64,000 bases of DNA from an uncultured delta proteobacterium. Its GTDB lineage: Bacteria > Desulfobacterota > Binatia > UBA9968. Positions 2,821 through 43,666 of the stretch are shown here, piece after piece (within the stretch, counting starts at the first letter, position 1; each line of letters starts with the position of its first letter). The DNA lies in assembly GCA_963816145.1 (NCBI GenBank), contig CAWFJP010000005.1, positions 320,001 to 384,000 of the forward strand, written 5' to 3'. Below the pieces are notes generated by a model, which had not been told where the DNA came from, ran no database searches, and saw only the letters and a program-made list of their open reading frames with translations. Position numbers and translations under genes: made by a program.

Positions 2821-2878
2821 TTTTGCTCCTAACCGCGGAAGATCGCTGCGATGAAACTATGGAATCGGGCCGATGAGG

Positions 2879-5785: not shown

Positions 5786-5817
5786 CGTTCCTCCAAATCC
5801 GCTCTTCTCGCCCATTG

Positions 5818-12041: not shown

Positions 12042-12087
12042 ATTATCTCCAGAGGTCTTTATAGAAGCTTGGATCGGATAGTCGTAA

Positions 12088-16995: not shown

Positions 16996-18630
16996 ATGAT
17001 GGAAGATCTCGTTGAAATCGTCAATCCGTTGGGTGTCCCGCGCAAGCAGGTGAGTAAACTGGCGCCGCGACGATACGACAGCCTGGAGGGCCGGCGGATT
17101 GGATTGCTCGATAACAACAAGCCCAACGCCGACACGTTCTTGCAAATCATCGGCGAATTACTCCGCGCGCGTCATGCCGATATCCAACTCGTTGCCAAAC
17201 GCAAGATGACGCGCATGGAATCGGACGGTCTGGCGCAGTTAGCCGGGGATTGCGATGTCGTCATCAACGCCTTTGCCGATTGAGGTTCGTGCACGTCGTG
17301 GAGTGTCCACGACTCGGTAAAGCTCGAAGGCGCGGGGATTGCCACCGTGACCGTGGTGAGCAGCGAGTTTTGGGCCCTAGCTCTGACAGAGGCGCAGGCG
17401 CGTGGTGTGAAAGATCTGCCGCTGGTCAAAGTGCCGCATCCGGTGGGCACGATAGCGTTTGATGCGCTGCGCTCGGTCGCCGAGTCGGCAGTCGATGCGA
17501 TTGTCAGTAAATTGGTTCGCGGCAATGATTCGGCCTCGTGCGGCGAGGGCATCTCTGCAGAGGCCGGTGAAGGCAGTGCCGCCGCCACGTTGTCCGTTCC
17601 GAGCGATCCCGAAGATTTGTTCAGTTTCTTTTTCGATCGCGGATGGACCGACGGCTTGCCGGTCTTGCCACCGACTTTAGCAGCGGTGCGAAAGATGGTT
17701 GCCGCTGGCGGCAAGAAAGCCGATGTGATTTTGGGCGTCATCCCGCCGCTGAATGGCGTTGCCACCGTTGAAAAGATCGCCGCCAATGCGGTGATGGCAG
17801 GCTGTTTGCCGGACTATTATCCGCTCGTGCTCGCGGCGGTGCGCGCCATCACCCGGCCGGGCTATAACCTTGACGGCTTGCAGACGACCACGGGAAATAT
17901 CGCGCCGCTGGCGATCGTTAACGGGCCTTGCCGCAATCGGTTGGCGATCAACTATGGTGCCAATGTGCTCGGTCAGGGCTGGCGCGCTAACGCCACCATC
18001 GGCCGGGCGATTCGTTTCGTCATGACCAATATCGGCGGTGCTCGGCCCGGCAGCTTCGATAAGTCGACGATGGGCCAGCCGGCGAAATACACTTTTTGTT
18101 TCGCTGAAAACGAAGAAGAGAGTCCGTGGCAACCGTTTCATGTCGAGCGCGGCCTGGCGCGCGATTGCGATACGATACATATGTTCGGCGCCAGCGGCGT
18201 TTACAGCGCCGTCGATATGGCCAGCCAATCGGCCAATGGATTGCTCAAGACTTTCGCGTTGACGATGACCGGCGGCTTGGCGAGCGGCGTGACTTCAACA
18301 GAAGTTCTCTGGGTGATTTGTCCCGAGCACGCGGCTATCCTGGCGCGGGATGGTTTTTCCAAAGAGAAGTTGCGTGTCGAGCTATTCGCTTTTGCACGCG
18401 TGCCCTTCGACAAGATCGCCGATGAAAACTTAGATCTGCTCGCCAAACGGCGACCTGGTTGGTTCAAGTCTGGCGCGGCGCGCGAGATTGGCGTGGTCGA
18501 CCGGCCCGAAGACATCTGGCTCGTGGTCGCCGGTGGCGCGGGCGCCAAGTCGGCATATATTCCGGGGCGGACGGGAACGCGGATGCAAACGGTGGCCGTG
18601 GAGGGACCCGAGTATGCAGTACTGGAGTGA
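16996..18630 (+). CDS. UGSC-motif selenoprotein fused to a conserved uncharacterised domain (Sec at TGA 17281-17283, residue 96; 544 aa)
   Basis: ORFs 16996..17283 and 17347..18630 are in frame with no other stop; read-through gives AFAD-U-GSCTSWSVHD..LEGAGIATV; SECIS-like hairpin follows. Confidence 0.88.
17295..17313 (+). promoter_or_regulatory. Bacterial SECIS-like hairpin
   Basis: GTCGTGGA-GTG-TCCACGAC, perfect 8-bp stem with G-first loop, 11 nt after the TGA. Confidence 0.8.
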
Positions 18631-18637
18631 TGGCAAT

Positions 18638-19630
18638 ATGAGTTGGAATCGGCAAATCGTAATTGTGATGATCTATTTCTGCGTGTGGTTGGTGCCGTCG
18701 CTGGCCGATGCCCAAATCAAGTCGATCATCATCGGCGAAGGGGTGCGCGGCGCGATGTATTTGCCGGCGTACATCGCCGAGGAAAAAGGCTTCTTCAAGC
18801 GGCGTGAATTGGATACCCGCATGGTTACCTTCAGCCGCAGCAACGACATCAATGCCTTGGTGTCGGGAGATATACAGTTCGATCTGACGTCGCCGGACAA
18901 AGTTGTCCATAGCGCCTTGGGCGGATTCCCGGTGAAGATGGTGATGGGCACGGCACGCGGGCTGAACCTCGCCTTGACGGTGCATCCATCGATCCGCACG
19001 GCTACCGATTTGCGTGGCAAGTCGGTGGCGATCACCGGCTTTTCCGGTTTGCCCTATACCGGGCTGCTGCTCTGTTTACGCGAACTCGGCATGACCAAGG
19101 ATCAGGTGGTGCCGCTCAATATCGGCGGCAAGAGCGCGCGCTTCGAGGCCTTACTCGGCAATCGTGTGCCGGCGGCGATCCTCGATCCGCCCTATACAAC
19201 GCTGGCGGCCAAGGAAGGTTACCGCTTGCTAGTGGACTTGGCGCCGTTGGATGTTCCCTATCTGCGCAACATTGTCGCGGTGTCGGAGAAAACGCTGCGC
19301 GACGACAGCCGCACGGTCGCGCGCTTTGTCGCTGGGTTGGCGGAGGGCATGCAGTTTTATCGCAACAAGGTCAACAAAGAAGACAGCATGAAGATTCTGG
19401 CGAAGTATCTACGGCTGCCGTTGGAGAAAAATCGTCCGATGATCGAAGAAGGCTATGAAACCTATCGTGATATGATGCTGAAAAAACCTTACGCGGACCC
19501 CACTGCGATGAAGATTCTGCTGGAGATCATAGCCGAATCGAATCCCAAGGCGAAGTCGGTCAATCTCGCGGCGCTGATCGACTCGTCGTTCGTCGAAGGC
19601 TTGGATCGTGCGGGTATGTTCGACCGTTAG
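18638..19630 (+). CDS. ABC substrate-binding protein, NMT1/SsuA-like
   Basis: Signal peptide from ATG 18638; YIAEEKGFF, DLRGKSVAI; 7 nt after the selenoprotein stop. Confidence 0.85.
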   Translation: MSWNRQIVIVMIYFCVWLVPSLADAQIKSIIIGEGVRGAMYLPAYIAEEKGFFKRRELDTRMVTFSRSNDINALVSGDIQFDLTSPDKVVHSALGGFPVKMVMGTARGLNLALTVHPSIRTATDLRGKSVAITGFSGLPYTGLLLCLRELGMTKDQVVPLNIGGKSARFEALLGNRVPAAILDPPYTTLAAKEGYRLLVDLAPLDVPYLRNIVAVSEKTLRDDSRTVARFVAGLAEGMQFYRNKVNKEDSMKILAKYLRLPLEKNRPMIEEGYETYRDMMLKKPYADPTAMKILLEIIAESNPKAKSVNLAALIDSSFVEGLDRAGMFDR

Positions 19631-27138: not shown

Positions 27139-28188
27139 ATGAAGACATTATTCAGACTCATCGTGTCGTTGATCGTCACCGCTTCCGTTGACGTTTCGGC
27201 CCAGGGGGCCAAGCCGTCGACCCTCGCTGATCTCGTTAAATATCGTGGCGCCGATCGGGAGAAGATTCTTTACGAGGGCGCCAAGCGGGAAGGAAGTTTC
27301 GTTTGGTACACCTCCCTGGTGCCGCATAAGGAGATCAGCAAGGTTTTCATGAGCAAGTATCCCGGTGTCAGCATTGATATCTATCGCGCCGACGGGGTGA
27401 CCCTTGCGAATCGCGCTATGGCCGAGCATCAGGCGCGCCGTCACATTATGGACGCCATCGAAACCACGCCGCCGCCATTGATGCCGCTGCGCGATAACAA
27501 GTTGCTGATGCCGTACTGGTCCCCGCATCTGGCGGCTTATCCCGAAATTGCCAAGGAAAAGGCCGATGGCGATCTGGTGTGGTGGAGCACTGACCGCGAG
27601 TCGTTGATCGGCGTCGGCTACAACAAGAATACATTTCCCGCCGCCGATCTGCCGAAGCGTTTCGACGACCTGCTCAAGCCGGCGTTGAAGGGCAAAATGG
27701 GGGTGGCGAACAACGAGACCGGCGCCCGCGCCCTCGGCGGCATCATCAAGGCCAAGGGAGAGGAATTTGTCCGGCGGCTCAAAGATCAAGAAGCGCGCCC
27801 GCACGCGACAAGTGCCGCGGGGTTGGCCGATCTGATCATTCGTGGCGAGGTGCCGATCTCCTTTACCATGGTGCAAACCAATTTGACGCAGCCCGCTGCC
27901 ACGCGCGGCGCACCGGTGGGCTGGGTGCCGATGGAGGTCGTGCCGGTCAATGCCGGCGGCGCCGCGATTTCGGCCAATGCGGCCCATCCCCATGCGGCAT
28001 TGTTGTTCATCGATTTTCTGCTTGGTCCGGAAGGCCAGAAGATGTATGCCGACAAACTTTTCTATACCAGCGCGACGAGAAAAGTCAGCTATGAGAAATG
28101 GTATCCCGATAAAGGATTGACCACGGCGGAGTACGAAGAACGGGCCGACAAGTGGCTGAAGCTCCTGCGCGAGATTACCCGAAAGTAG
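27139..28188 (+). CDS. Extracellular solute-binding protein (Fe3+/thiamine-type)
   Basis: GAKREGSFVWYTS, GYN, DLLKPALKGK, AAHPHAALLFIDF. Confidence 0.85.
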   Translation: MKTLFRLIVSLIVTASVDVSAQGAKPSTLADLVKYRGADREKILYEGAKREGSFVWYTSLVPHKEISKVFMSKYPGVSIDIYRADGVTLANRAMAEHQARRHIMDAIETTPPPLMPLRDNKLLMPYWSPHLAAYPEIAKEKADGDLVWWSTDRESLIGVGYNKNTFPAADLPKRFDDLLKPALKGKMGVANNETGARALGGIIKAKGEEFVRRLKDQEARPHATSAAGLADLIIRGEVPISFTMVQTNLTQPAATRGAPVGWVPMEVVPVNAGGAAISANAAHPHAALLFIDFLLGPEGQKMYADKLFYTSATRKVSYEKWYPDKGLTTAEYEERADKWLKLLREITRK

Positions 28189-30260: not shown

Positions 30261-31433
30261 CTAGGGTTGGAGTTGTGGTTGCGGGTTTGAGGTTGAGCTG
30301 CTGCGCGATTCATATTCCCCCGCACCGTAGAAGCGCGCGCAGTTGTCCCAAAGGATCTTGCGCTTGTCGTCGTCGGAAAGTTTCAACTCAAGAAAGCTCT
30401 TGACGGCGTTGGGATACTTCGAGTCACCATGCGGATAGTCGGTGGAGAATACCAACTGATCGCAACCGAACTCTTCGATCGTGTAGCGTGCCGGCGCTTC
30501 ATCGGGCTCGATGGAGATCCAGCATTGGCGTTTGAAATACTCGCTGGGCGGCATCTTCAAATCCGACATGAAGACATCGCCTTCACGCTCGTAGCCTTCG
30601 TCCAGCCGCCATAACAGCCAGGGCAGCCAGGAACAGTTGGCTTCAAGAAAGGCGACGCGCATCTTGGGATGACGTTCCAAAATACCTCCGCCCAAGAAAG
30701 CGCCCATGCCCATCATCTGCTCGAACGGTTGGGCATAAACGCGGCGCAGACCGAAGTTGGGTTCGAAATGTTCCGCCGCCTGGCGCGAGCGCGATGCCGA
30801 AGCTTCGTGGAAGCCCAACGGCAAATTCAATTCTTCGAGCAATTCCCAGAGCGGCTCGTAGTGCGGGTCATACCAGTTCTTGCCGTTGATGATGTTGGAG
30901 CGCAGGAACACCGAGCGAAAACCATACTCTTCTTTGACCCGGCGGGTTTCGCGCAAAGCATCGTCGAGATCGTAGACCGAGATCATGCCGGCGCCGAGGA
31001 GCCGCTCGGGATCGGCGGAGCAAAAGTCATGCAGCCAATCGTTGTAGGCGCGCGCCATGGCGTCAGCGAAGCGCGGATCTTGGTCGGGGAAGGTGAGTAT
31101 GCCCAGTCCGCGAGTCGGGAACAGCACCGCGGTGTCGATGCCTTCGGTGTCCATCGCTTCCAACTGCACGTGACCGGTCCAGCCGCGCTCGGCGTGGCTG
31201 CGATAGATCTCCTGATTCTTATTGAAGTTGCTGCCGCGGTGCGGTGTGCCACCGGTGCGCCGGGTGTCTTTGGGCACTTTAGGAAAGATCGTGCCGAGAT
31301 CGCGGACGTTGTCCGAGGTCCGGCCGCGCGGCGCCTGATCGCGAAATTTGGGATCAATATAGCGCTCCCAAAGATCGGGCGGCTCCATGATATGCATGTC
31401 GCTGTCGAAAACTTTGAATCCATTTTTCGCCAT
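30261..31433 (-). CDS. Amidohydrolase-2 family protein
   Basis: FDSDMH, RAYNDW, LGFHE, LEANCSW, FSTDYPH; start ATG 31433. Confidence 0.9.
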   Translation of the reverse strand: MAKNGFKVFDSDMHIMEPPDLWERYIDPKFRDQAPRGRTSDNVRDLGTIFPKVPKDTRRTGGTPHRGSNFNKNQEIYRSHAERGWTGHVQLEAMDTEGIDTAVLFPTRGLGILTFPDQDPRFADAMARAYNDWLHDFCSADPERLLGAGMISVYDLDDALRETRRVKEEYGFRSVFLRSNIINGKNWYDPHYEPLWELLEELNLPLGFHEASASRSRQAAEHFEPNFGLRRVYAQPFEQMMGMGAFLGGGILERHPKMRVAFLEANCSWLPWLLWRLDEGYEREGDVFMSDLKMPPSEYFKRQCWISIEPDEAPARYTIEEFGCDQLVFSTDYPHGDSKYPNAVKSFLELKLSDDDKRKILWDNCARFYGAGEYESRSSSTSNPQPQLQP

Positions 31434-31454
31434 GGTTCCCCCTTTGATTTGCCG

Positions 31455-31484
31455 AGCGTAATGCCGAGTTAGGGGAGATGTCAA
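31455..31484 (-). promoter_or_regulatory. sigma70-type promoter
   Basis: TTGACA-18-TACGCT on the minus strand. Confidence 0.55.
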
Positions 31485-31544
31485 GCAATGTTTACTTTGA
31501 GTTGTCGGCGGGTTGGATCGCCGCTCCAGCGCGCAGATTCGGCG

Positions 31545-31571
31545 GAGATTTCTCGCTGCCCTCGAAATGAC
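31545..31571. repeat. GTCAT-type REP half element
   Basis: GAGATTTCTCGCTGCCCTCGAAATGAC, similar to 14369-14395 and 62714-62741. Confidence 0.65.
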
Positions 31572-31626
31572 TATTGATGATGAATTGACCATGTCACAGT
31601 TTGCGGTCTTTCAAGTGTCGCTAACG

Positions 31627-32502
31627 TCACGGCATGTTAACGCCGGTAGGAGCGAAGTACTCTGAGCCCGTTGTGCGGGATGCACCCCATGGCAGTTCGA
31701 GCTGGTTGCCCTCAGGAAAGAGAACTTGCGCCGTCCCTTCAATGCGCTCGCCACGCACTTTGCCGCTGAATTCATGACGGGTTAGGCCGATGCCTTCCAA
31801 CGTCATGACGAGGTTGAACGAGATGTTCTCGCCGTTGAGCTTCATGTCGCTCAGCACTTCACGGTTGGCGCCGGCGCGGACGACGCCTTCGGCGCTTTGG
31901 AATTGCTGTTCCAACACCGCGGCGTAGGCGATGCGCTGGCCGGCGAGGTTAAACTCCCAGCTCCAGTTGCCGGCAATGCGCGCCGGCACGATCCAGAGGT
32001 AGCTGGTCGGGCTGCCGCTGTCAGTGGCGTCGGCGGGCCAGGTGCCGAGATCCCAGGTGCTGGTTAAGACGCGCGTGCCAGGGCGCGCGCGTTCGAGAAT
32101 GATCGGTCTTAGCAGCCGCAAGAGTTCCGGAAATAGCCACATGGTGACTACCGTAGCCTCGCGGAGGTCGGCGTCGAAGGCGTTCTGATGAATAAACTTG
32201 ACGCGGTCAGCGACGCCCTGGGCCATGGCGATGCCATTGGATTCGGCGATCAGCTTCGCGTCGATATCGACGCCCCAGCCGCGCACTTTCGCATTCATTT
32301 TCGCCGCGGTGAGGACAATGAGTCCATCGCCCGAGCCGAGGTCCGCCACCACGTCGTCGTCGCGCAGGTTGGCGAGCTTGAGCATGCGCTCGGCACTTTC
32401 GGGCGTGCTCGCTTGGAAGAACGAAAAGCGCTCTTGGGCCGGCGCGCCGGCGGCGGCACAAAGCATGATGCCGAAAATCAGTTTGCGGGTTAATTCAATC
32501 AT
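31627..32502 (-). CDS. Class I SAM-dependent methyltransferase with signal peptide and C-terminal beta domain
   Basis: VADLGSGDG, GVDID, ATVVTMWL, PGTRV. Confidence 0.85.
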   Translation of the reverse strand: MIELTRKLIFGIMLCAAAGAPAQERFSFFQASTPESAERMLKLANLRDDDVVADLGSGDGLIVLTAAKMNAKVRGWGVDIDAKLIAESNGIAMAQGVADRVKFIHQNAFDADLREATVVTMWLFPELLRLLRPIILERARPGTRVLTSTWDLGTWPADATDSGSPTSYLWIVPARIAGNWSWEFNLAGQRIAYAAVLEQQFQSAEGVVRAGANREVLSDMKLNGENISFNLVMTLEGIGLTRHEFSGKVRGERIEGTAQVLFPEGNQLELPWGASRTTGSEYFAPTGVNMP

Positions 32503-32523
32503 GCATTCTCCGTTGCTATTCTC

Positions 32524-32584
32524 GTACGGGCGACCCCCCCGTGGTCACCATCTCCGGCGGACAGGCACGGGGGCCGGCCCCTCC
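32524..32584. repeat. Degenerate GTAG-type REP doublet
   Basis: GTACGGGCGACCCCCCCGTGGTCACC ... GGACAGGCACGGGGGCCGGCCCCTCC. Confidence 0.5.
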
Positions 32585-32703
32585 GCGGAATAGTTATTGA
32601 ATTTACAAACAAGCACGCCCTTTCTCTGCGGTCAATTGACAAGCGCTCTTTGCCCAATTACATCTCGTACAGTCGAGGGATATCTAACGGAATGCCGGGA
32701 GCT

Positions 32704-33690
32704 ATGAGCATGACTGTTCGAACATTGGTCGGTATCGCCATTCTGGTTTTGCTCAGTTCGGTCGACCTGAGCGCGCAAAGCCGCAAGGTGCGGGTGGCGA
32801 TGCCGGGCTACACCATCGCCGGGATTTCATTTCTTACCGCGAAGGTCAACGGCTACTACGCCGCCGAGGGCTTGGATGTGGAGCTGATCGCCATGCGCGC
32901 GCCGACGGCGAATCTCGCCGTGCTGAGCAGCAGCGTGGAGTTCTCCACGGTGCCTTTGGCTGGATTGAATACGGCGCTGCGCGGCGGCGCATTGAAGATC
33001 GTCATGGTCCACTTCGACAAGCCGCAGCATGTGTTGTTTGTCAAGAATGACCTGCAAAATCTAAAACTCTTGCGCGGCAAAAAAGTCGCCGTGTCCGGGC
33101 CGGGAGTGATCGACGACTTGCTGTTGCGTGAAGTGCTGGGAAATAACGGCATCGATGCCAACAAAGAGCTGGCTATTCTCAGCATGGGTTCGGCGGATAC
33201 CCGGGTGACCAGCTTGATCAGTGGCGCGGTGGACGGAGCGATGATCATCGCTCCGCATACTTTTACCGCCAAGGACGCGGGCTTTCGCGAATTGGTGGTG
33301 TTTCGCGACCAGGGTTTGCTCTTGCCGAGCGGCGGTATCGCGGCACGGGACGAAACACTGAAAAACGATCCGGGTTTGGTGGAGCGCTTCACGCGCGCGT
33401 CGATGATGGGGTTCATCCACTCGCGCGATAACCGCGCCGGCGCGATCCGGGTTCTTAGCAAGACGTTAAGGATCGACGAGACGATCGCCGCGAAAGTATA
33501 CGATTCGTCGCGACCGACGATGACGGCCGACGGCACGCTCAGTGACGATGCACAAAAGAAAATGGCTGCTTTTGTCGCTAAGTCTGCCGGCCTTAAAGAA
33601 ATCATAGCGGCGGACAAGGCCTTCGATTTCTCGTTTGTACGCAAGGCTAACGCTGCGTTGCACACCAAAGGCTGGCAGCCGCTGCCGTGA
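32704..33690 (+). CDS. ABC substrate-binding protein, NMT1/SsuA-like
   Basis: Signal peptide; AKVNGYYAAEGLDVELI, LRGKKVAVS; TTGACA-17-TACATC at 32636-32664 favours a start near 32704. Confidence 0.85.
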   Translation: MSMTVRTLVGIAILVLLSSVDLSAQSRKVRVAMPGYTIAGISFLTAKVNGYYAAEGLDVELIAMRAPTANLAVLSSSVEFSTVPLAGLNTALRGGALKIVMVHFDKPQHVLFVKNDLQNLKLLRGKKVAVSGPGVIDDLLLREVLGNNGIDANKELAILSMGSADTRVTSLISGAVDGAMIIAPHTFTAKDAGFRELVVFRDQGLLLPSGGIAARDETLKNDPGLVERFTRASMMGFIHSRDNRAGAIRVLSKTLRIDETIAAKVYDSSRPTMTADGTLSDDAQKKMAAFVAKSAGLKEIIAADKAFDFSFVRKANAALHTKGWQPLP

Positions 33691-33691
33691 A

Positions 33692-33721
33692 TTGACAACA
33701 GCGCTCCAGCGGCACTAAGGT
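33692..33721 (+). promoter_or_regulatory. sigma70-type promoter for the grdE/grdB-like pair
   Basis: TTGACA-18-TAAGGT. Confidence 0.5.
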
Positions 33722-33739
33722 CTTCTGTGAAAGAGCATT

Positions 33740-35014
33740 ATGCAACTGACACTGGCCTATCACCCGGTTAGCTCGATTCGCTTCGGCGCTAAATTGAATT
33801 TGGACGGCACGGTGCTGACGGTTAGCCAAGACGAATTGCGCGCCATTGTTCTCGAAGACTCGCTGATCGAAGCGGTGGACTTCGCCCTCGCCGCGCCCAA
33901 CGACAGCCTGCGCGCCGGGCCGGTGTTCGATATCGTCGAGCCGCGCGCCAAGGCGGCGGTCGGCAGCCCGGACTGGCCGGGGATTCTCGGTGCGCCGCAG
34001 ACCGCCGGCAGCGGCACTACGCATGTGCTGTCCGGTGCGGCAGTGACCATGCTGCGTGAGGACTCTTCCGGTGATTCGCGCGGCGCCACTGGTTACGTCC
34101 TCGAAATGAGCGGCGCGCCGGCGGCGGGCTCGCATTACGGCACGCTGCGGCATTTGATCGTCGTACCGCGTACTCGGCCGAATATTCCGGCGGCCGCGCG
34201 TCAGCGCGCTTACCGTTTAGCGCAATTGAAAATGGCTGTGCGACTGGCACAGGCGGCTTTTTCTGTCGTACCGGCGCGATCCGAAGTCCTCGATAACGCG
34301 GATGCCGAGCCGCGCGCCGGCTTGCCGCGGCTGGCTTACATTGGTCAAATCTTTTCACGTCAGCGCAAACCGGAAGCCGATGAGCATATACTTTACGGCA
34401 CTGACACCGACGGCATGCTGCCGACCCTCCTCCATCCCAACGAGTGGCTCGACGGCGCGTTGGTGCCGTCGTACCACGCGTCAATCGGTGGCGCAGAAAC
34501 CTATTTTTATCAAAATCATCCAGTGATTCTCGAACTCTACCGGCGCCATCGCGCGGGTGAAATAAATTTCATCGGCTCGGTGGCGACGATAGCCTCGGCC
34601 AATAATTTCGACCGCGAACGCAACACGCGCTTTGCGGCCAATCTTACTAAATGGGCACTGCGCGCTGATGCCGCAGTGCTGACCAAGTTCGGCGGCGGCG
34701 TGCCGCACACGGATTTGTCGGAGACCGCGCGCGTACTCGAAACCATGGGTGTCAAGACCGCCGTGCAGGTTACGGATCTCGCGCGCGACCACCGGATCGA
34801 GTCGGCGCTATTGTTCAACTTCCCCGAGGTCGACGCCATCGTCTGCATCGGCGGCAACGACACCCACTGGAAGCTGCCGCAGGTCGAGCGCGTGATCGCG
34901 GCCAGCAGCGGCCTGGCGGAGTTGCTCGCCGGCCCGTTGGAGATCGACTCGCTCAATGTGATCGGCGTCGCCAACCAGCAAGGGGCGTCGCGATTGAAGT
35001 CGGTGGTGTATTAA
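33740..35014 (+). CDS. Glycine/sarcosine/betaine reductase component B non-Sec subunit (GrdE/GrdG/GrdI-like)
   Basis: DIVEPRAK, AGSGTTHVLSG, PTLLHPNEWLDGA, TY.YQNHP.I.ELY, DAIV..GN; adjacent to grdB-like gene. Confidence 0.85.
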   Translation: MQLTLAYHPVSSIRFGAKLNLDGTVLTVSQDELRAIVLEDSLIEAVDFALAAPNDSLRAGPVFDIVEPRAKAAVGSPDWPGILGAPQTAGSGTTHVLSGAAVTMLREDSSGDSRGATGYVLEMSGAPAAGSHYGTLRHLIVVPRTRPNIPAAARQRAYRLAQLKMAVRLAQAAFSVVPARSEVLDNADAEPRAGLPRLAYIGQIFSRQRKPEADEHILYGTDTDGMLPTLLHPNEWLDGALVPSYHASIGGAETYFYQNHPVILELYRRHRAGEINFIGSVATIASANNFDRERNTRFAANLTKWALRADAAVLTKFGGGVPHTDLSETARVLETMGVKTAVQVTDLARDHRIESALLFNFPEVDAIVCIGGNDTHWKLPQVERVIAASSGLAELLAGPLEIDSLNVIGVANQQGASRLKSVVY

Positions 35015-35018
35015 GAGG

Positions 35019-35091
35019 GCGTGAGGCCTGAGACGCGAGGCTTGAGTAAATCCGGAATCCGAACTCATGTCTCAAGCCTCGCGCCTCAGGC
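35019..35091. repeat. Palindromic 7-nt periodic GCxTGAG/CTCAxGC element
   Basis: GCGTGAG GCCTGAG ACGCGAG GCTTGAG ... CTCATGT CTCAAGC CTCGCGC CTCAGGC. Confidence 0.85.
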
Positions 35092-35108
35092 GTACTTAGG
35101 AGTTTGTC

Positions 35109-36380
35109 ATGCGTGTCGTACATTACGTCAATCAATTTTTCGGTGGGCTCGGCGGTGAAGAACACGCAGGAAATGCGCTTGAAATTCGCGATGGTGCGGT
35201 GGGGCCGGGCAAGTTGCTGGAACAACTCTTTGGCAACGACTGCCAAGTGGTGATGACGTTGGTCTGCGGCGATAACTACGCTGTGGAGAATCTGGAGGCG
35301 TTGACGGCCGCTGTATTGGAAAAAATTCGCGCTGCCCAGGCCGATCTGTTTGTCGCCGGGCCATGCTTTCTAGCGGGGCGATACGGCCTGGCGGCGGGGG
35401 CGCTGTGCGCGGCCGCGCAGGCGACATTGAAAATTCCCGTCATCACCGCCATGGCGGCGGAGAATCCCGGCGCCGATCTCTACCGCGAGTTCATGTATAT
35501 CGTCGACTCCGGTGACAATAGCGCTAAGATGCGCGAGGTGTTGACGCGAATGGCGGCCATGGCACAGAAGCTCATGCGTCATGAGATCATCGGCAGCCCC
35601 AAGGATGAAGGCTATCTCGTGCGCGGATTGATCCGCGATGAATTTGTCGAGCTATCCGCCGGCCAGCGCTTGGTCGATATGGTGCTCAAGAAAGTGCGCG
35701 GCGAGCCCTTCGAGAGCGAAATGAGTCCGACCACCTTCGCGCCGGTACCGAAGCCGCCGGCGATCGCCGATCTGACAAAAGCCAAGGTGATGCTGGTTAC
35801 CGACGGCGGGCTGGTGCCGAAGGGCAATCCAGACAAGATCCAGGGCTCGGCGGCGACTCGCTGGGGCGTGTACAGTGTCAAAGGTTGCCAAGATTTGGAT
35901 GGCGCCGACTACGAGATCTCCCACGGCGGCTATGATCCGCAGTTCGTGCGCCAGGATCCGGATCGGCTGGTGCCGCTGGATGTCATGCGCGAACTGGAAC
36001 GGGAGGGCGTCATCGGCGAGTTGCACGAAGAGTTTATTTCCACTTCGGGTCTGTCTAATCCATTGTCGAACACCCGGCGCATGGGACGGGAGATGGCAGC
36101 CAAGGCGAAGCAGCTGGGCATCGACGCGATCATTCTGACTTCAACGTGAGGCACCAGCACTCGCAGCGGCGCTGCGATCACTACGGAATTGGAAAAGGCC
36201 GGTATTCCCACGGTGCAGATTACCGCCGCGTTGCCCGTGGCGAAGATGGTCGGCGCCAATCGGTTGGTGCTCGGCAATGGTATCGTCCATGTGGTGGGCG
36301 ATGCCAAGGTATCGAAAGAGGACGAAAAGAAGCTGCGGCGCCGCTTGGTGGAGCAGGCTCTCGCGGCGATGCAAAAGTAA
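35109..36380 (+). CDS. grdB: Glycine/betaine/sarcosine reductase family selenoprotein B (Sec at TGA 36147-36149, residue 347; 423 aa)
   Basis: MRVVHYVNQFFGGLGGEE, AGP.F.AGRYG, VP.GNPD, HGGYD, DPDRLVPLD, ILTST-U-GT; in-frame continuation to TAA 36380. Confidence 0.92.
36161..36177 (+). promoter_or_regulatory. Bacterial SECIS-like hairpin
   Basis: TCGCAGC-GGC-GCTGCGA, perfect 7-bp stem with G-first loop, 11 nt after the TGA. Confidence 0.82.
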
Positions 36381-36630
36381 TAGCCGATGGAATCGCGTCC
36401 ATAATTTTGCCCGTTATCGGCCATTGCGCAGGGGTTCTTCGCCGAGGCCCGTAAAGATTGTCCAGTTCCTTGACTTGCTTCGAAGGCTGCTTTGGCTATT
36501 GATCGAGTATGGCATTATAATCAGCAACGAACCGAGTGAGCTTCGCCGGTGGAGGCAGGCCAAGTGGCGAATACATCAATTTCCCAACTCTATGCCAGGA
36601 CAATACCAAATCGCCGATTAGAGATCGCGA

Positions 36631-37770
36631 ATGAAACGTAGATTGATTGGACCGACGGTCATCGCCACGACGCTTTGCCTAGTGCTGTTGCAGCACCGTT
36701 TTTTTGGCGACAAAGGTTGGAGTCTCCTCGGGGTTCTGGGAAAAGTCCTGTCCGTCGTGGGTGCGATCCTTACGCCGCCCGAATCGGTCAGCAGCTTTTT
36801 TTATACTAATCTCGCGTTGCCGCTGGCGGTCGTTGTTACGGCGCTGGTTGTGCTTTGGATGATTCTAGCCGGCGCCCGGAAGACGATGCGTCAAGTGACC
36901 CCCGACGCGGAGGCGCCGATCTGGGAACTCCCCGTCACCAGCGATACCACTTCGGAGAGCGAACCGTTGGACGACGCGCCTGAATTGTCTTGGTCGCTGC
37001 CAGCCTATCGCTTCAATTGTCTACGCAGCAAGCTGGTCCTGGGATTTCTCGCGATCAGCCTGTTCGTCGTGGTCGCGGCTGCGTCATTCACTTACAGCTA
37101 TTTACATCGCGCGGTGGAGGGCGGCGCCAAGGCGCGCGCAGGCATCACCGCGATGGCGGTCAACGCCACGGCGGTTTGGCATGTCGATGGAAAGAGGTAT
37201 CAGGAGCTGCGCGACGAATTGGTCAAGACGACGACCCGACCAGCGGTCGCCTACGCCTATGTCGAGGACAGTGATGGCGAGTTGATTGCTCACGCTCCGA
37301 AAGATCTGCCGAATCATTTGATTCGCCGGCCGTTGTTGGAGCCGCGCCTGATGACTGGCGAACAGTTGGTGGGTTATCGCAACGAGATCGTCTACGACTA
37401 CGCCCAGCGCAGTGGCTTGAACAATCGATTCGTCGTCCATCTGGGAATCTGGCAGGACTCGGTGGTGGCCGAGACATGGTCAGTGTTGGGGCCGATCTTG
37501 CTTGCGGTCATTTTGTTGATACTCTGCGCCGCGGCGGTGTTTCTCGTTATGTTGCGGGACCTGCACCGGCCGCTGCTTGAGCTGGTCGAACAGTCGACGC
37601 GCATTAGCAAAGGCAATTTTTCCGTGGCCCTGGCAACCAAGCGGGACGATGAACTGGGAGATCTGGCTCGCTCGTTGGAACGCATGAGATCGAGTTTGCG
37701 CGCAGTGCTTTCCCGTATTGGCACGGAACCTACGGCGACTCCGTCGGAGCGGCAGAGGCGATCGTTTTAG
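36631..37770 (+). CDS. Membrane protein ending in a HAMP domain
   Basis: Several TMs, periplasmic segment, HRPLLELV..ISKGNF..RDDELGDLARSLERMR near the C-terminus. Confidence 0.75.
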   Translation: MKRRLIGPTVIATTLCLVLLQHRFFGDKGWSLLGVLGKVLSVVGAILTPPESVSSFFYTNLALPLAVVVTALVVLWMILAGARKTMRQVTPDAEAPIWELPVTSDTTSESEPLDDAPELSWSLPAYRFNCLRSKLVLGFLAISLFVVVAAASFTYSYLHRAVEGGAKARAGITAMAVNATAVWHVDGKRYQELRDELVKTTTRPAVAYAYVEDSDGELIAHAPKDLPNHLIRRPLLEPRLMTGEQLVGYRNEIVYDYAQRSGLNNRFVVHLGIWQDSVVAETWSVLGPILLAVILLILCAAAVFLVMLRDLHRPLLELVEQSTRISKGNFSVALATKRDDELGDLARSLERMRSSLRAVLSRIGTEPTATPSERQRRSF

Positions 37771-37907: not shown

Positions 37908-38951
37908 TCATTTTCCGGTGTAGATTTCTTTGACGAAGCCGGAACTCTCCAACTCTTGAAGTAAGCGGTTGTCGTAGAAATCCTTGGGATTGGCCGCGGC
38001 GGCTTTGGGGTGGTCGGTCACCGAAAGCGCGGCTCGGATGGCGTCATCGGTGACGTACGGCACCCGTGGAAACAGCTGGGCAAAGCTGCGGTAGGCTTCG
38101 TCGATGATTTCTTGATCTTTTGACGCGAGATATTTGCCGATGGCGCGCTTGGAAATATCCGGCTGCTCGATCGACAGTTTCAACCCGACCACCATCGCTT
38201 TTAGAAATCCCCGCACGACATCGGGACTTTGCTGGATCGCCGAACGGCGCACGGCTAATCCCATGAATGGATAGGGCAGCTTGAGCGCGCCGATGTTGAC
38301 CAGTTCCTTGAAGCCCAAGCGGCGCGCCATCAACGTCGTCGGCGCCGAGTGGACCGCGGCTTGGACGATGCCTTGATTCAACGCCGCCAGCGCGTCTTCC
38401 TGGCGCGAGAAGTAGAGTACCTTCATATCCTGCTGGGTCATTTTGTATTGTCTCAAAAGGGCGATAGCGGCATGGTCGGAAGACGCGCCTTTGGTGATGA
38501 CGCCGAGCACTTTGCCGCGCAGGTCGGGCACCTCTTTGATCTCCGGACGGGCGTACAAAGAAAACGCATAGGTCGCCACCGGCATGCCGACATAAATAAA
38601 CTCGGCGCCGCTCAACATGGCGTTGACCGCCGCGCCGCCGGTCATGGCGATATCGACCGCGCCGGACAGCATCGATTGCGTCAAGCGGACGCCGCCGGGG
38701 ATGTAGACGGGCTTGATGTCAAGGTTGTATTTCTGATCGATCTTGCTGTCGGCGATGTTCCACAGCGGCGTCTGGCCGCCGTTCAGTTGCGGGTAGCCGA
38801 CGCGGATCGTCGTCGGCGCGGCGGCGTGGAGAGAATTGGCCGCAAAGAGCGCAAAGGTCGCAAAAAATATTGCCATAACAAGACTGCTCAACAATTTTGA
38901 TGATACCATGAGTTGTGGAGCCCCCCGCGGTTTGGCGTTGCGATTGTTCAC
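37908..38951 (-). CDS. ABC substrate-binding protein, NMT1/SsuA-like
   Basis: IRVGY, DLRGKVLGV, FYDNRLL; exact start uncertain. Confidence 0.85.
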   Translation of the reverse strand: MNNRNAKPRGAPQLMVSSKLLSSLVMAIFFATFALFAANSLHAAAPTTIRVGYPQLNGGQTPLWNIADSKIDQKYNLDIKPVYIPGGVRLTQSMLSGAVDIAMTGGAAVNAMLSGAEFIYVGMPVATYAFSLYARPEIKEVPDLRGKVLGVITKGASSDHAAIALLRQYKMTQQDMKVLYFSRQEDALAALNQGIVQAAVHSAPTTLMARRLGFKELVNIGALKLPYPFMGLAVRRSAIQQSPDVVRGFLKAMVVGLKLSIEQPDISKRAIGKYLASKDQEIIDEAYRSFAQLFPRVPYVTDDAIRAALSVTDHPKAAAANPKDFYDNRLLQELESSGFVKEIYTGK

Positions 38952-39030
38952 TGACTACTTAGCAGGAAAATCCTATCTCGACAAAGCTCTTGTCGGAGAG
39001 TGCGGGTCTGGAGTATTGGTGGACATCGCC

Positions 39031-40056
39031 ATGGCATACAAGATCAAGATCATGTTCACCACGAGGGACACGAAGATCACGAAGGGTTTCGTTGCGGTTT
39101 TTACCGCGCTTCTCTTCATAGGTGGATTCAGACCGGCTAACGCTTTGGACAATGTGCGCGTTGCGACCGCTTCACTGACTTCACCGTCGATTCTCTACCT
39201 CCTAGTCGCCCAGAAGGAGGGTTACTTCAAGAACGAAGGACTCAACGTCGAGATCCTCAACATTCGCGGCGAGCTCGCCGCGAAGATCACGTCGGTCGGT
39301 GAAATCGATTTCTTTACTCAGGGATTTAGCGGTTTGAACGCGGCGGTGCGAGGCTTGCAGCTCAAAGTTATCATGGTCGTCGACGAGAAGCCGGACTGGG
39401 ATTTTATCACCCAGCCGCAGATCAAGACTTTTGCGCAACTGAAAGGCGGCGCCGTCGGCATCCTTTCCATCGGCGGCACGGTCGCGGTGGTGACCCGCGA
39501 GATGCTGCGGCGCAATAACCTGGACCCGGCGAAGGATGTCAACTTGATGGTTATGGGCGGCAACGACATGCGCTTCATCTCGCTCAAGGGCAAAGTGATC
39601 GGGGCCACGCTCCTGGACGCCGCCAATAGTTATCGCGCGCAGAAAGATGGCTTCTACAAATTGGCGGCGGCTAGTGATTACGTGAGCGAGTATATGAGCG
39701 GCGGGATCGTCACTTCGACGGAACGGATCAAGCAGGCCCCGGATAAGGTCGCCCGCTTCATGACCGGCGCCCTCAAGGGTTACCTATTCTTTACCACGCG
39801 TCGCGAACCATCGATCAACTACATGATGCAATTCTTGAAGACCAAGGATAGGGAAGCGGTCAGCGCGATTTACGACGCCAGCGTGAAAGTCATGACCCGG
39901 GACGGCATGATTGAGGAAAAGGTGCTGCAAGCCGTGATCGATGAAGCCCAGCGTGGCGCTGGAGTGAAAAAGGATGTTCGCACCGCGGATTATTTCGACT
40001 TCAGTTTTCTACGGAAGGCGCGGGAGCAATTGAGGGTGAGCGGGTGGAAGCCGTGA
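39031..40056 (+). CDS. ABC substrate-binding protein, NMT1/SsuA-like
   Basis: Start ATG 39031 or 39052; VAQKEGYFKNEGLNVEI, QLKGGAVG, YFDFSFL. Confidence 0.85.
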   Translation: MAYKIKIMFTTRDTKITKGFVAVFTALLFIGGFRPANALDNVRVATASLTSPSILYLLVAQKEGYFKNEGLNVEILNIRGELAAKITSVGEIDFFTQGFSGLNAAVRGLQLKVIMVVDEKPDWDFITQPQIKTFAQLKGGAVGILSIGGTVAVVTREMLRRNNLDPAKDVNLMVMGGNDMRFISLKGKVIGATLLDAANSYRAQKDGFYKLAAASDYVSEYMSGGIVTSTERIKQAPDKVARFMTGALKGYLFFTTRREPSINYMMQFLKTKDREAVSAIYDASVKVMTRDGMIEEKVLQAVIDEAQRGAGVKKDVRTADYFDFSFLRKAREQLRVSGWKP

Positions 40057-40376: not shown

Positions 40377-41441
40377 CTACCGCTCCAACAGCCCCGTCAG
40401 CTGCACGAGTTCTTCAAACCTTGCGCCCCATTTGTCCGCGTCGGGAACCAGGGTTTTGCGGTTGCCGACTTCGTCGGTGGCGCCGGTGGCGAGGTCTTTG
40501 TGGGCCGGCCAGCGGGTTTGGCGGTAGGCGATCTCTTGGCCTTTTTTCGACAGCATGAAGTCGACCAGCAGGGCGGCAGCGTAGGGATGCGGCGGGCGGG
40601 CGGCGAGGACGAACGCCGATGCGGCTTTTACCGGGACAAACGGTTCGGGGAAAAGATAGTCGATCGGCGCGCCGGCTTTCTTGAGCGCCACTGCTTCGTG
40701 ATGGTGCGCGTCGATCTGCACGGGAAACTCGCCGGCGGTGACCAATTGTGAGACCAGTGTGCGTCCTTTGCGGATGTTCAATTGCTGCGCGCCAAGGCTA
40801 CGGGCGATCTGTTTGCCGCGTTCGTCGCCGTAGTAGTCCATGATCGCGGCCAGCCAGTCGTCGGCGTCTTTGTCCATGCCGAGTTTGCCTTTCCAGCGCG
40901 GCTGCAACAGATCTTCGATGGATTTCGGCGCCTGCGCGCGGGTCACCTGTTTGTTGTTGTAAAGGTAGACTAGAAGAGACGCCCAGATGCCGTTGAAATA
41001 ACCTTCCTTGTCGGTGAAACCGGCGCGCAGGGCGCGGCGGTAGGGCGTGTCGAAGCGCATCACCGCGTTGGCTTTTTTTAGTGTGTAGAGCGCCGAGCTG
41101 CGCACGTTCATGGTGTCGTAGTTGAATTTGCCGGCGCGATATTCGGTCATGATGCGGTTGAGCAAGCTTTGGGGTCCGCCAGTTAAGATCTCAACTTTTA
41201 GAAATGGATATTCCGTTTCAAAAATGCTGGTGAACTCGCGCAAGGATTCGCGATTCATCGGCGCATACCAAATTACGGTACGCTCGTTCTTCGCTTCGCG
41301 CACCAGAGTCGCTTGGCGTTCCGCCGCCGGCAGTTGATTGATCTTGGCGAGGGTTTCTTCAGGCGTCGCGGCTAGGGCGCGGGTTGGCGCATTGGCGAGA
41401 CAGGCGCCGAGGACTAAAAATGTCAGTAGGCGGGACCGCAT
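40377..41441 (-). CDS. Extracellular solute-binding protein (Fe3+/thiamine-type)
   Basis: AKNERTVIWY, YN...APKSIEDLLQPRWKGK, PHPYAAALLVDF. Confidence 0.85.
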   Translation of the reverse strand: MRSRLLTFLVLGACLANAPTRALAATPEETLAKINQLPAAERQATLVREAKNERTVIWYAPMNRESLREFTSIFETEYPFLKVEILTGGPQSLLNRIMTEYRAGKFNYDTMNVRSSALYTLKKANAVMRFDTPYRRALRAGFTDKEGYFNGIWASLLVYLYNNKQVTRAQAPKSIEDLLQPRWKGKLGMDKDADDWLAAIMDYYGDERGKQIARSLGAQQLNIRKGRTLVSQLVTAGEFPVQIDAHHHEAVALKKAGAPIDYLFPEPFVPVKAASAFVLAARPPHPYAAALLVDFMLSKKGQEIAYRQTRWPAHKDLATGATDEVGNRKTLVPDADKWGARFEELVQLTGLLER

Positions 41442-42835: not shown

Positions 42836-43666
42836 TTACTCCATGCCGTCGGTGATGAATTGGATGACGTAGCCCGCGGGGTCGTCCATATACGTGCCGC
42901 CACGGTCGGCGCTCGGCTCCTTGGCCGCGCCGCGGTCGCCGTTTTCAATGGCCAATTTGGCCAAGTGTTCGATGGCCTCGGACCATTTGGCTGTAGGTAC
43001 ATAAAAAGCAATATGGGGTCCGGGGACTTTTCGGCTCATCACGAGACCTTTCGAGGCGAACGGCGCTTTGGTCAGGATCAATGTCTGGCCGCTAGCCATC
43101 TTCAGGGTGGCTTGTTTACCGTCGGCGCTACGGCTTTGCACCTCGAAGCCGAGAACGTCGTGATAGAATTTGATCGACGCTTCGACATCCGGAGCTTCCA
43201 GCTCGATATAGCCGACGCCGGTCATGCGGCCCGTGGCCGCGCTCGCGGCGGTGTTGACATCTTTCGGTAAATACACTGCGTAATGATTTCCAGCCGGGTC
43301 GGTAAAGAAAACTGTTTGCGCTGCGAATGGATGGCTATTTCCGACCGGCCCCGTGTAACTTACACCGAGCTGATTGAGGTCGGCTGCGAGTTGATCTAGC
43401 CCAGATTCCGTGGTCGTGAAGGAATAGGTCGGCAATCCGCGCGGACTACTCGGGCTTGGCCGGTCATCGCTTTGAAGGTAGACGCCCATGCGTTTGCCAC
43501 CGATTTGAATAAACGTATGCGGCACCGCGCCGCGCTTGCGTTGACGCACGTTGAGACCGTTACGTTTCCCGAGTACCCCGCCAAAAACACGGGCATAAAA
43601 ATCCTCGGCGATGACGATATCATCGACGGGAACAACAAAATGATCGAGAGATTGAGCGATGGCCAT
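42836..43666 (-). CDS. Two-domain VOC/glyoxalase-family protein
   Basis: LDHFVVPVDD..AEDFY, FFTDPAGN, SIKFYHDVLGF, HIAFYV, YMDDPAG. Confidence 0.85.
   Translation of the reverse strand: MAIAQSLDHFVVPVDDIVIAEDFYARVFGGVLGKRNGLNVRQRKRGAVPHTFIQIGGKRMGVYLQSDDRPSPSSPRGLPTYSFTTTESGLDQLAADLNQLGVSYTGPVGNSHPFAAQTVFFTDPAGNHYAVYLPKDVNTAASAATGRMTGVGYIELEAPDVEASIKFYHDVLGFEVQSRSADGKQATLKMASGQTLILTKAPFASKGLVMSRKVPGPHIAFYVPTAKWSEAIEHLAKLAIENGDRGAAKEPSADRGGTYMDDPAGYVIQFITDGME

Follow-up and report, generated by a model that had tools for sequence, protein, structure and literature searches.

A selenocysteine-encoding GrdE/GrdB-like gene pair in a soil Binatia genome

We analysed a 64-kb stretch of DNA, referred to below as the window, which comprises positions 320001-384000 of contig C5 in the metagenome-assembled genome (MAG) of a soil Binatia bacterium (7.82 Mb, 31 contigs, 99.5% complete). 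At 32650-36380 of the window, three open reading frames (ORFs) follow each other in tandem on one strand and encode an NMT1-type solute-binding protein (SBP), a GrdE-like protein and a GrdB-like selenoprotein. An earlier interpretation made from the DNA letters alone, here called the sequence-only reading, had described this arrangement, which is borne out by the ORFs and by their Pfam and NCBIfam scores (Table 1); the GrdB-like protein also falls in the broad subfamily TIGR01918 (480 bits over residues 2-422; cut-off 65.45). Three further claims of that reading hold as well. The catalytic motifs of both subunits are altered (UGTSTRS in the GrdB-like and PSYHAS in the GrdE-like protein); other glycine reductase genes are absent from the 64 kb, GrdA and GrdC profile matches being confined to contig C2; and oxygenase-type families are present, in the form of a 3-His cupin and a glyoxalase/dioxygenase-superfamily protein. 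The module is intact, encodes selenocysteine (Sec) and is conserved, and the clade to which it belongs is large, widespread and uncharacterised.

A TGA occupies the Sec site in all 81 GrdB matches found in 80 related loci. The hairpin downstream of it, which resembles a Sec insertion sequence (SECIS) and has the consensus CGCAGC-GGN-GCUGCG, retains all 6 base pairs in 34 of 34 aligned orthologues, and in these sequences the synonymous sites vary alongside the stem but do not change within it. The fold of the whole 75 nt around the TGA is unremarkable (z-score -0.24), and the weight rests on the local hairpin and its conservation. The genome encodes selA-selB-selD on contig C30, with selD itself containing a TGA, and a tRNA-Sec. 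Because the hairpin is kept in all 34 orthologues and selA, selB, selD and tRNA-Sec are present, the TGA of the window is credible as a Sec codon. The best 120 of 2727 homologues are 76-100% identical to the window protein, and all of these were called as proteins of 345-353 residues that end at the TGA; the automatic Joint Genome Institute (JGI) names of close homologues include "glycine" or "betaine reductase". Such truncated gene calls (346-aa fragments) and such names are why the clade escapes annotation.

Table 1. Module genes and neighbouring features in the window (positions in nt of the window).
Feature	Position	Strand	Evidence or remark
3-His cupin, thiol-dioxygenase-like fold, 212 aa	29609-30247	-	Structure prediction and Foldseek
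Amidohydrolase_2 family protein	30261-31592	-	PF04909, 99.2 bits
S-adenosylmethionine (SAM)-dependent methyltransferase-like protein	31627-32502	-	Between amidohydrolase and SBP; shared with L025 only
NMT1/SsuA-type periplasmic SBP	32650-33690	+	PF09084 (NMT1/THI5-type), 65.5 bits
GrdE-like subunit, protein B alpha-type, 424 aa	33740-35014	+	PF09338, 243.1 bits (cut-off 22.2)
GrdB-family selenoprotein, 423 aa	35109-36380	+	PF07355, 436.9 bits (cut-off 22); Sec347 in U-G-T-S-T-R-S
In-frame TGA (Sec codon)	36147-36149	+	Sole in-frame TGA of the GrdB-like ORF
SECIS-like hairpin CGCAGC-GGC-GCUGCG	36162-36176	+	Starts 11 nt 3' of the TGA
HAMP-domain membrane protein	36631-37770	+	PF00672, 47.5 bits; directly 3' of GrdB; no output domain found
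Glyoxalase/dioxygenase-superfamily protein	42836-43666		

The pair departs from canonical B components

Around Sec, the window protein reads LTST-U-GTSTRSGA, with serine in place of both cysteines of the UxxCxxC motif, which the available text of PMC13188914 gives as canonical for selenoprotein B. The identical LTSTUGTSTRSGA is found in 52 of the 81 GrdB matches of the related loci. References from Bacillota and similar genomes carry UGTCTRCGA instead, and all labelled GrdB, GrdF and GrdH references have UGTCTRC.

In the GrdE-like protein, PSYHAS stands at the site of the canonical SGN|C, whose cysteine we take to be the point of GrdE self-cleavage that becomes the pyruvoyl group. The accessible part of PMC10838667 backs the identity of this cysteine as the cleavage site. 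None of the GrdE-like rows of the UGTSTRS clade has a cysteine in the self-cleavage column of the alignment, whereas the proteins paired with the labelled GrdB and GrdF references keep SGNC. SGSF occupies the site in the GrdI-like protein paired with a GrdH above the NF040795 cut-off (806 bits, genome G062), so that the cysteine is missing there too.

The GrdB-like protein scores below the cut-offs for glycine reductase GrdB (TIGR01917, 443.2 versus 602.2 bits), sarcosine reductase GrdF (NF040794, 483.8 versus 800), betaine reductase GrdH (NF040795, 433.7 versus 775) and PrdB (TIGR04483, 87.7 versus 300, matching residues 207-422 only). The GrdE-like protein falls short of sarcosine reductase GrdG (NF040793, 175.2 versus 780) and of fluoroacetate reductase FarE (NF053623, 137.3 versus 675); no FarB model was among the matches. 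The GrdB motif of Nobu et al. 2022, GPxF[NF]AGRYG ... AHGGxD[QTAP] ... RV[IL]PxD ... TxGNxTxV (PMC9751293), is failed as well: compared by eye, the window protein has GPCFLAGRYG, SHGGYDP, RLVPLD and STSGLSNPL. It also fails the GrdF motif from that paper. A sequence search of GrdB and GrdE against solved structures gave no match at E <= 0.01 and hence no structural clue to the residues that contact the substrate. The scores and motifs support the view that the pair falls outside the canonical B components of glycine, sarcosine and betaine reductases.

The clade is separate from GrdB, GrdF and GrdH

A maximum-likelihood tree of 94 GrdB rows (quick IQ-TREE run, LG+C20+F+G4) places the window GrdB in a 55-row clade with a Shimodaira-Hasegawa-like approximate likelihood ratio (SH-aLRT) support of 99. 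Its members are Binatia, Thermodesulfobacteriota-labelled, Dehalococcoidia/SAR202, Nitrospinota, Verrucomicrobiia-labelled and Acidiferrales MAGs. All NCBIfam-labelled GrdB, GrdF and GrdH references form a separate clade of 27 rows (SH-aLRT 96). The window copy lies in a 10-row subclade (SH-aLRT 98), and a paralogue on contig C31 of the same genome is in a sister group. Forcing the UGTSTRS rows together with two GrdH references is rejected by an approximately unbiased (AU) test (log-likelihood difference 101.6, p = 9.8e-21); the GrdH grouping had been raised in the sequence-only reading, but the limits of the group were drawn after the tree had been seen. The phylogeny that this reading had proposed as a check keeps the pair apart from GrdB, GrdF and GrdH alike. 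The two GrdH references score 806 and 772 bits; none was found among the 80 related loci, and genome G062 was the source of the one that passes the cut-off.

Two named identities were tried and rejected. GrdHI is ruled out by the NF040795 score, by UGTSTRS versus UGTCTRC, by the separate clade and by the AU test; a PrdB-like identity is ruled out by scores, motifs and the tree.

The G062 genome (locus L088), of a cultured Bacillota labelled Bacilliculturomica massiliensis, has seven GrdB-family genes with TGA, including one GrdH above the cut-off and one UGTSTRC form whose branch lies directly outside the UGTSTRS clade.

A literature search, limited in reach, found no paper joining grd genes with Binatia/Binatota, SAR202, Dehalococcoidia or DUF255, and no description of the clade (supplements excluded; the full Grd tree of PMC9751293, its Fig. 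S6, may show the clade). The main text of a Binatota genome paper (PMC8262859) has no occurrence of betaine, glycine reductase, selen-, sarcosine or trimethylamine, and a Sargasso Sea selenoproteome paper includes grdA and grdB with a single sequence each and does not discuss them.

GrdA and GrdC are encoded elsewhere in the genome

We searched the genome with profiles for GrdA (PF04723, NF040748), GrdC (NF040746) and GrdD (NF040747). There is exactly one grdA, at C2:212428-212859 (NF040748, 184.6 bits versus a cut-off of 130), which is intact and has the canonical CFVU. A grdC lies ahead of it (C2:210846-212232) and covers NF040746 in full, in four frame pieces; compared with a relative of the same genus, it has three single-base indels (L010 1517, 1935 and 2397-2400). 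We aligned Logan contigs from four wetland/soil runs, belonging to four studies, to this stretch. Every contig that covers the grdC indels has the frame-restoring state and none has the state of the assembly; some of the contigs are 98-99% identical to the assembly. Because every covering contig restores the frame, the frameshifts are most likely assembly errors. Of the sequence words that make up the grdC-grdA stretch, six RNA runs share a fraction of just 0.06-0.07. The approximately 50 nt between grdC and grdA (L010 2512-2565) have a summed contig depth of 1600-3000 in the four runs, compared with approximately 10 alongside, and many loose ends, resembling a short dispersed repeat common in these metagenomes.

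GrdD was not found in the genome, where the best NF040747 match reaches 20.3 bits. Five relatives with full-length GrdB all have GrdA and intact GrdC, and in none of these five (two of them single-contig genomes) does GrdD exceed the cut-off. Across 61 genomes of the class, GrdA passes its cut-off in exactly the same 6 that have full-length GrdB, and the other 55 have neither; the 6 span four families and, as kin, are not independent. A trxB gene is present at C30:394175-395080 (TIGR01292, 420.4 bits versus 343.45), linked to no grd gene. A second TrxB-like gene (C8:27692-28585; 327 bits, just below 343) lies approximately 17 kb upstream of the GrdE/GrdB genes of contig C8. The genome also has two genes for heme-copper oxidase subunit I.

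Six full-length GrdB-family genes occur in the genome, all with a TGA, and GrdE-like matches are found at approximately eight places. All six GrdB paralogues score under the GrdB, GrdF and GrdH cut-offs, and SGNC is absent from each of the 7 GrdE-like paralogues that were aligned (the eighth, on contig C27, is split and was left unaligned). Because no paralogue passes these cut-offs or keeps SGNC, non-canonical B modules are the only possible clients of GrdA and GrdC in this genome. The paralogue on contig C31 (GrdB 66% and GrdE 61% identical to those of the window) is divergently adjoined by a gene for a DUF255-like protein; the sole other PF03190 match in the genome is a 270-bit copy of the housekeeping type.

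Among the remaining paralogues, the GrdB of contig C8 (C8:46673-48001) loses similarity approximately 30 residues before its expected end, as if frameshifted, and the GrdE-like gene of contig C27 (C27:54751-56026) is matched as two overlapping pieces; both breaks are likely to be further indel errors or decaying copies. On contig C29 (95029-100304), two GrdE-like genes lie after a GrdB paralogue with UGTCSRS; a heme-copper oxidase subunit I gene (C29:103390-104760) is found approximately 3 kb past this cluster.

These results alter part of the sequence-only reading, which had seen a minimal module working independently of the A and C proteins and had suggested a genome search for grdA, grdC and grdD and a count of grdB paralogues. 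The lack of grdA, grdC, grdD and trx in the 64 kb stands, as does the failure to find grdD in the genome, and the count came to six; grdA and grdC, one of each on contig C2, and trxB on contig C30 are nevertheless encoded elsewhere. These genes, together with the co-occurrence of GrdA with GrdB and the linkage seen in 17 of 52 related loci (below), speak against independence from the A and C proteins. That reading had set its proposal against a complete grd/trx set elsewhere combined with a GrdHI-type pair: grdA, grdC and trxB do lie outside the window, whereas grdD was not found and the pair is not GrdHI.

Neighbourhoods of the related loci

Within 6 kb of the 52 UGTSTRS loci, we find a GrdE-like gene in 51, GrdA in 17, GrdC in 17 and a DUF255-like thioredoxin-domain protein in 23. 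When the count is confined to the 35 loci whose flanks extend 5 kb or more in each direction, GrdA is present in 14, GrdC in 14 and the DUF255-like protein in 18. The order grdC-grdA-grdE-grdB on one strand is seen in L027, L033 and L036, and the arrangement is divergent in many Dehalococcoidia loci. The DUF255-like protein has approximately 500-580 residues with PF03190 and PF13899 domains, and AFWC[GR]xCQRMDE is kept in 20 of 20 aligned sequences. In two of the Binatia loci with grdC-grdA-grdE-grdB, a radical-SAM/DUF3641 gene lies 3' of GrdB (L033 10136-11561, L036 10048-11007), and L033 has an FGE-sulfatase-domain gene there too. The fluoroacetate system has a radical-SAM protein as well, namely FarC (PMC10838667).

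The loci of the window subclade share the cupin, the amidohydrolase, the downstream HAMP protein and a longer flanking block consisting of SBP, flavin reductase, phosphoenolpyruvate (PEP)-mutase-like protein, glyoxalase-type dioxygenase and hydrolase. The orthologue in L025 is 87% identical and has the same neighbours; only in L025 and the window do an SBP and a methyltransferase gene stand between the amidohydrolase and grdE. The HAMP protein follows GrdB in L018, L025, L028, L031 and L032 and has 4 tblastn matches in the genome. The Amidohydrolase_2 protein is found in 6 related loci besides the window, directly abutting grdE in L018; because it has 162 tblastn matches in the genome, it is a weak link.

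The cupin is the sole neighbour whose recurrence is hard to ascribe to chance or shared ancestry alone. It occurs in 8 related loci in addition to the window, 4 of Binatia type and 4 from Dehalococcoidia, and in the latter (L029, L052, L056 and L065, all of the basal subclade) it lies directly upstream of GrdE. The genome has approximately 6 cupin paralogues, compared with the 162 amidohydrolase and 277 SBP matches. Residues H105, D106, H107 and H162 are invariant. Pfam gave nothing significant for the cupin (CDO_I, E 0.086, for one homologue), and NCBIfam gave no family for either the cupin or the amidohydrolase. The AlphaFold2 (AF2) model (mean predicted local distance difference test score, pLDDT, 85.3) has as its best Foldseek matches the mercaptosuccinate dioxygenase 8vni, the Pseudomonas thiol dioxygenase 4tlf, the 3-mercaptopropionate dioxygenase 6xb9 and cysteine dioxygenases (CDO), with E values of 1e-12 to 1e-9 and template modelling (TM) scores of 0.6-0.76.

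The SBP gene most likely starts at ATG 32704 (MSMTVRT...), followed by a hydrophobic, signal-like stretch, and its protein scores 70.7 bits against TIGR01728 in NCBIfam, under the cut-off of 163.5. Of the 80 related loci, only L025 (80% identity) and L026 (73%; a short contig) have a homologue adjacent to the pair, and an SBP at least 50% identical to that of the window is found in 1 of the 52 UGTSTRS loci. With 277 tblastn matches in the genome, orphan SBPs are massively expanded; of the 51 window ORFs scanned, none matched an ABC permease or ATPase family. The adjacent SBP is a lineage-specific neighbour and not a conserved component of the system. In the window, the SBP genes number nine, the others being at 4802-5815, 11061-12149, 12088-13092, 18488-19630, 27139-28188, 37908-38951, 38836-40056 and 40377-41441. 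A promoter and terminator scan of 32400-36800 was uninformative on whether SBP, grdE and grdB form an operon, the sites being no commoner than in shuffled sequence.

Near GrdE/GrdB in Dehalococcoidia and Binatia, an isochorismatase-family hydrolase occurs in 11 loci and a luciferase-like monooxygenase in 15; the isochorismatase gene immediately precedes the cupin in L029 and L052 and overlaps the called cupin ORF in L065. We build on neither neighbour, because the phyla concerned carry greatly expanded sets of luciferase-like genes.

The window contains a second selenoprotein candidate at 16996-17530 on the plus strand, with a TGA at 17281-17283 in the context ...NAFAD-U-GSCTSW.... With read-through of the TGA, the ORF matches the C-terminal portion of PF24696 (UGSC family); the program-made ORF list splits it at that codon.

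A predicted protein B module and the alternatives

By analogy with known systems, the GrdE-like/GrdB-like pair may be a "protein B" module with a substrate of its own, feeding the shared GrdA and GrdC and yielding a product other than acetyl phosphate; we put the probability of this at roughly 60%. Since the pair has no pyruvoyl group and hence could form no Schiff base, the Sec347 selenolate would attack the alpha-carbon of X-CH2-COO(-) directly, with X a good leaving group such as a quaternary ammonium, sulfonium, halide or sulfur group. The resulting Se-carboxymethyl group would then pass from GrdB to selenoprotein A (the GrdA of contig C2), a transfer that would be needed because UxxSxxS leaves GrdB no thiol to resolve the selenoether. 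From GrdA, the group could move to the FabH-like GrdC (whose middle piece scores 42.6 bits against FabH PRK09352) as an acetyl thioester. Because there is no GrdD, acetyl phosphate would not be formed; the product would probably be acetate or acetyl-CoA, making the reaction assimilatory and not an ATP-yielding Stickland reaction. GrdA might be re-reduced by the DUF255-type CxxC thioredoxin-like protein beside the C31 paralogue, or by thioredoxin and TrxB. The window copy would be a recent paralogue that shares these common parts. For the substrate, we consider an onium compound (betaine or a sulfonium analogue) the best candidate, followed by a carboxymethyl-sulfur compound linked to the cupin and then by haloacetate. 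The idea of the sequence-only reading that the substrate needs no Schiff base and is possibly an onium compound is plausible in this respect.

Several observations weigh against a module that shares GrdA and GrdC. The A and C genes are unlinked to the window, and with six B paralogues in the genome, that this particular copy uses them is something we infer. The role of GrdC without GrdD, giving acetyl-CoA or acetate, is likewise one that we infer from family resemblance alone. The grdC gene is frameshifted in the assembly, and the contigs that correct it come from other samples, so that it may be a strain-specific pseudogene. The window subclade and the basal Dehalococcoidia subclade are without adjacent grdC-grdA or DUF255 and have the cupin there instead. 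No transporter or catabolic gene that would name a substrate is conserved beside the module. Regarding the Sec codon itself, no compensatory changes or covariation were seen in the hairpin across the 34 orthologues.

A functional glycine-betaine, quaternary amine or sulfonium reductase, analogous and not orthologous to GrdHI, would deliver trimethylamine or a sulfide plus an acetyl unit to a methylotrophic aerobe. The GrdE-like protein lacks the pyruvoyl cysteine just as the GrdI-like partner of the cut-off-passing GrdH does, and grdI is not a proprotein according to the accessible part of PMC10838667. The automatic names of close homologues include "betaine reductase", and Binatota are described in PMC8262859 as aerobic methylotrophs using methylamine. 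Such an activity nonetheless seems unlikely to us. The GrdH score is 433.7 against a required 775, and the GrdH references have UGTCTRC and sit in another clade, union with which is rejected. No betaine transporter was found by Pfam among 64 ORFs of 10 loci, nor in the ORF clusters of 52 related loci and two regions of this genome, and the main text of PMC8262859 mentions neither betaine, trimethylamine, glycine reductase nor selenium.

Quite improbable, in our estimation, is an oxygen-exposed organosulfur pathway in which a carboxymethyl-sulfur compound is cleaved by Sec at its C-S bond and the thiol, released or supplied, is oxidised by the cupin. Its attraction lies in the cupin, an invariant 3-His protein of thiol-dioxygenase fold that stands beside GrdE/GrdB in two phyla with only approximately 6 paralogues in the genome, and in the fact that the cupin-bearing subclades are the ones without adjacent DUF255 or grdCA; the SBP is moreover of the SsuA/TauA-like NMT1 type. 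The proposal rests on adjacency, however, and the Binatia cases may reflect inherited synteny, given the long flanking block that they share, while the SBP match is under its cut-off and the family is hugely expanded in the genome. We know of no such organosulfur chemistry in this family, which also counts against it. A wider version would be a long shot on present evidence: the whole Cys-free, pyruvoyl-free clade would cleave C-S or C-onium bonds in oxygen-exposed cells with the help of the cupin and the DUF255 thioredoxin, passing the product via GrdA and a GrdD-less GrdC to acetyl-CoA. Were it true, it would mean non-fermentative, assimilatory Stickland-type chemistry on an organosulfur or onium substrate new to such degradation.

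That the SBP and GrdE/GrdB are self-contained, working in the manner of PrdAB without GrdA, GrdC or thioredoxin on a substrate delivered by the SBP, strikes us as very unlikely. The 64 kb do lack grdA, grdC, grdD and trx, the A and C genes are never adjacent in the window's subclade, and the SBP gene lies 49 nt upstream on the same strand and is retained in L025 and L026. Against this, UxxSxxS has no thiol beside Sec that could resolve the selenoether, GrdA accompanies full-length GrdB in 6 of 6 genomes versus 0 of the 55 others, and grdC-grdA is adjacent in 17 of 52 loci. Delivery by the SBP, as the sequence-only reading had suggested, is a weak proposition: the gene is missing from the other 8 loci of the 10-row subclade and adjacent in L025 and L026 only, it has 277 paralogous matches, it is one of nine orphan SBPs in the window, and among the 51 window ORFs there is no ABC permease or ATPase nearby. 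Finally, redundancy or decay of the window copy, leaving it with no function of its own, is barely credible, since despite the six GrdB and approximately eight GrdE-like loci and the frame breaks in the C8 GrdB and C27 GrdE, both of its ORFs are intact, its Sec codon and hairpin are retained, and it has close relatives in the L025 orthologue with the same neighbours and in the best 120 of 2727 homologues.

Implications

Textbooks treat selenoenzymes of the glycine reductase type as markers of anaerobic Stickland fermentation. The branch described here is conserved, and the genomes that carry it, which come from soil, wetland and the dark ocean (SAR202), encode heme-copper oxidases. Three hallmarks have been lost from the branch together: the CxxC that follows Sec, the pyruvoyl cofactor and GrdD, which forms acetyl phosphate. 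A dedicated thioredoxin-like partner has been gained. If the branch is active, it would provide abundant uncultured bacteria with a reductive route for small carboxymethyl compounds such as osmolytes, haloacetates and organosulfur compounds.

Comparison with known systems

The clostridial glycine reductase, in which GrdB/GrdE work with GrdA, GrdC, GrdD, TrxA and TrxB, has in common with the window system the two protein families, the position of Sec, the placement of the SECIS and the GrdA (CFVU) and GrdC families. It differs in that the window pair has UxxSxxS and no SGN|C, that no GrdD was found in the genome and that the genes of the window system are dispersed over three contigs. D-proline reductase PrdA/PrdB resembles the window system in a Sec-bearing, homologous C-terminal domain. 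It needs no GrdA, as the sequence-only reading would require of the window pair, and releases its product directly, the thiol after Sec in PrdB resolving the selenoether. That thiol lies three residues after Sec (PrdB motif UxxC in the available text of PMC13188914), and the window protein is without one.

GrdH/GrdI is closer in architecture, being a selenoprotein B with an unprocessed alpha-type subunit that lacks the pyruvoyl cysteine, and it uses GrdA and GrdC. GrdH keeps UGTCTRC, however, the window protein scores 433.7 versus 775 against its model and the two lie in separate clades.

The published precedent for such a set of features is the fluoroacetate reductase FarE/FarB of Cloacibacillus porcorum MFA1 (PMC10838667). 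With a FarE score of 137 versus 675, the window protein is not a member of that family. FarEB has antiporter and radical-SAM neighbours and belongs to a strict anaerobe with GrdD, whereas the host of the window has heme-copper oxidases, no GrdD that could be found in its genome and other neighbours. The likeness lies in the organisation of the system: a pair away from grdA/grdC, a Sec without CxxC and an E subunit without processing cysteines. In that paper, FarB is without CxxC and FarE, without processing cysteines, is said to be "similar to grdI"; for the orphan farEB module, the authors predict that the selenolate attacks X-CH2-COO(-) directly and that hand-over is to GrdA and GrdC, which are shared.

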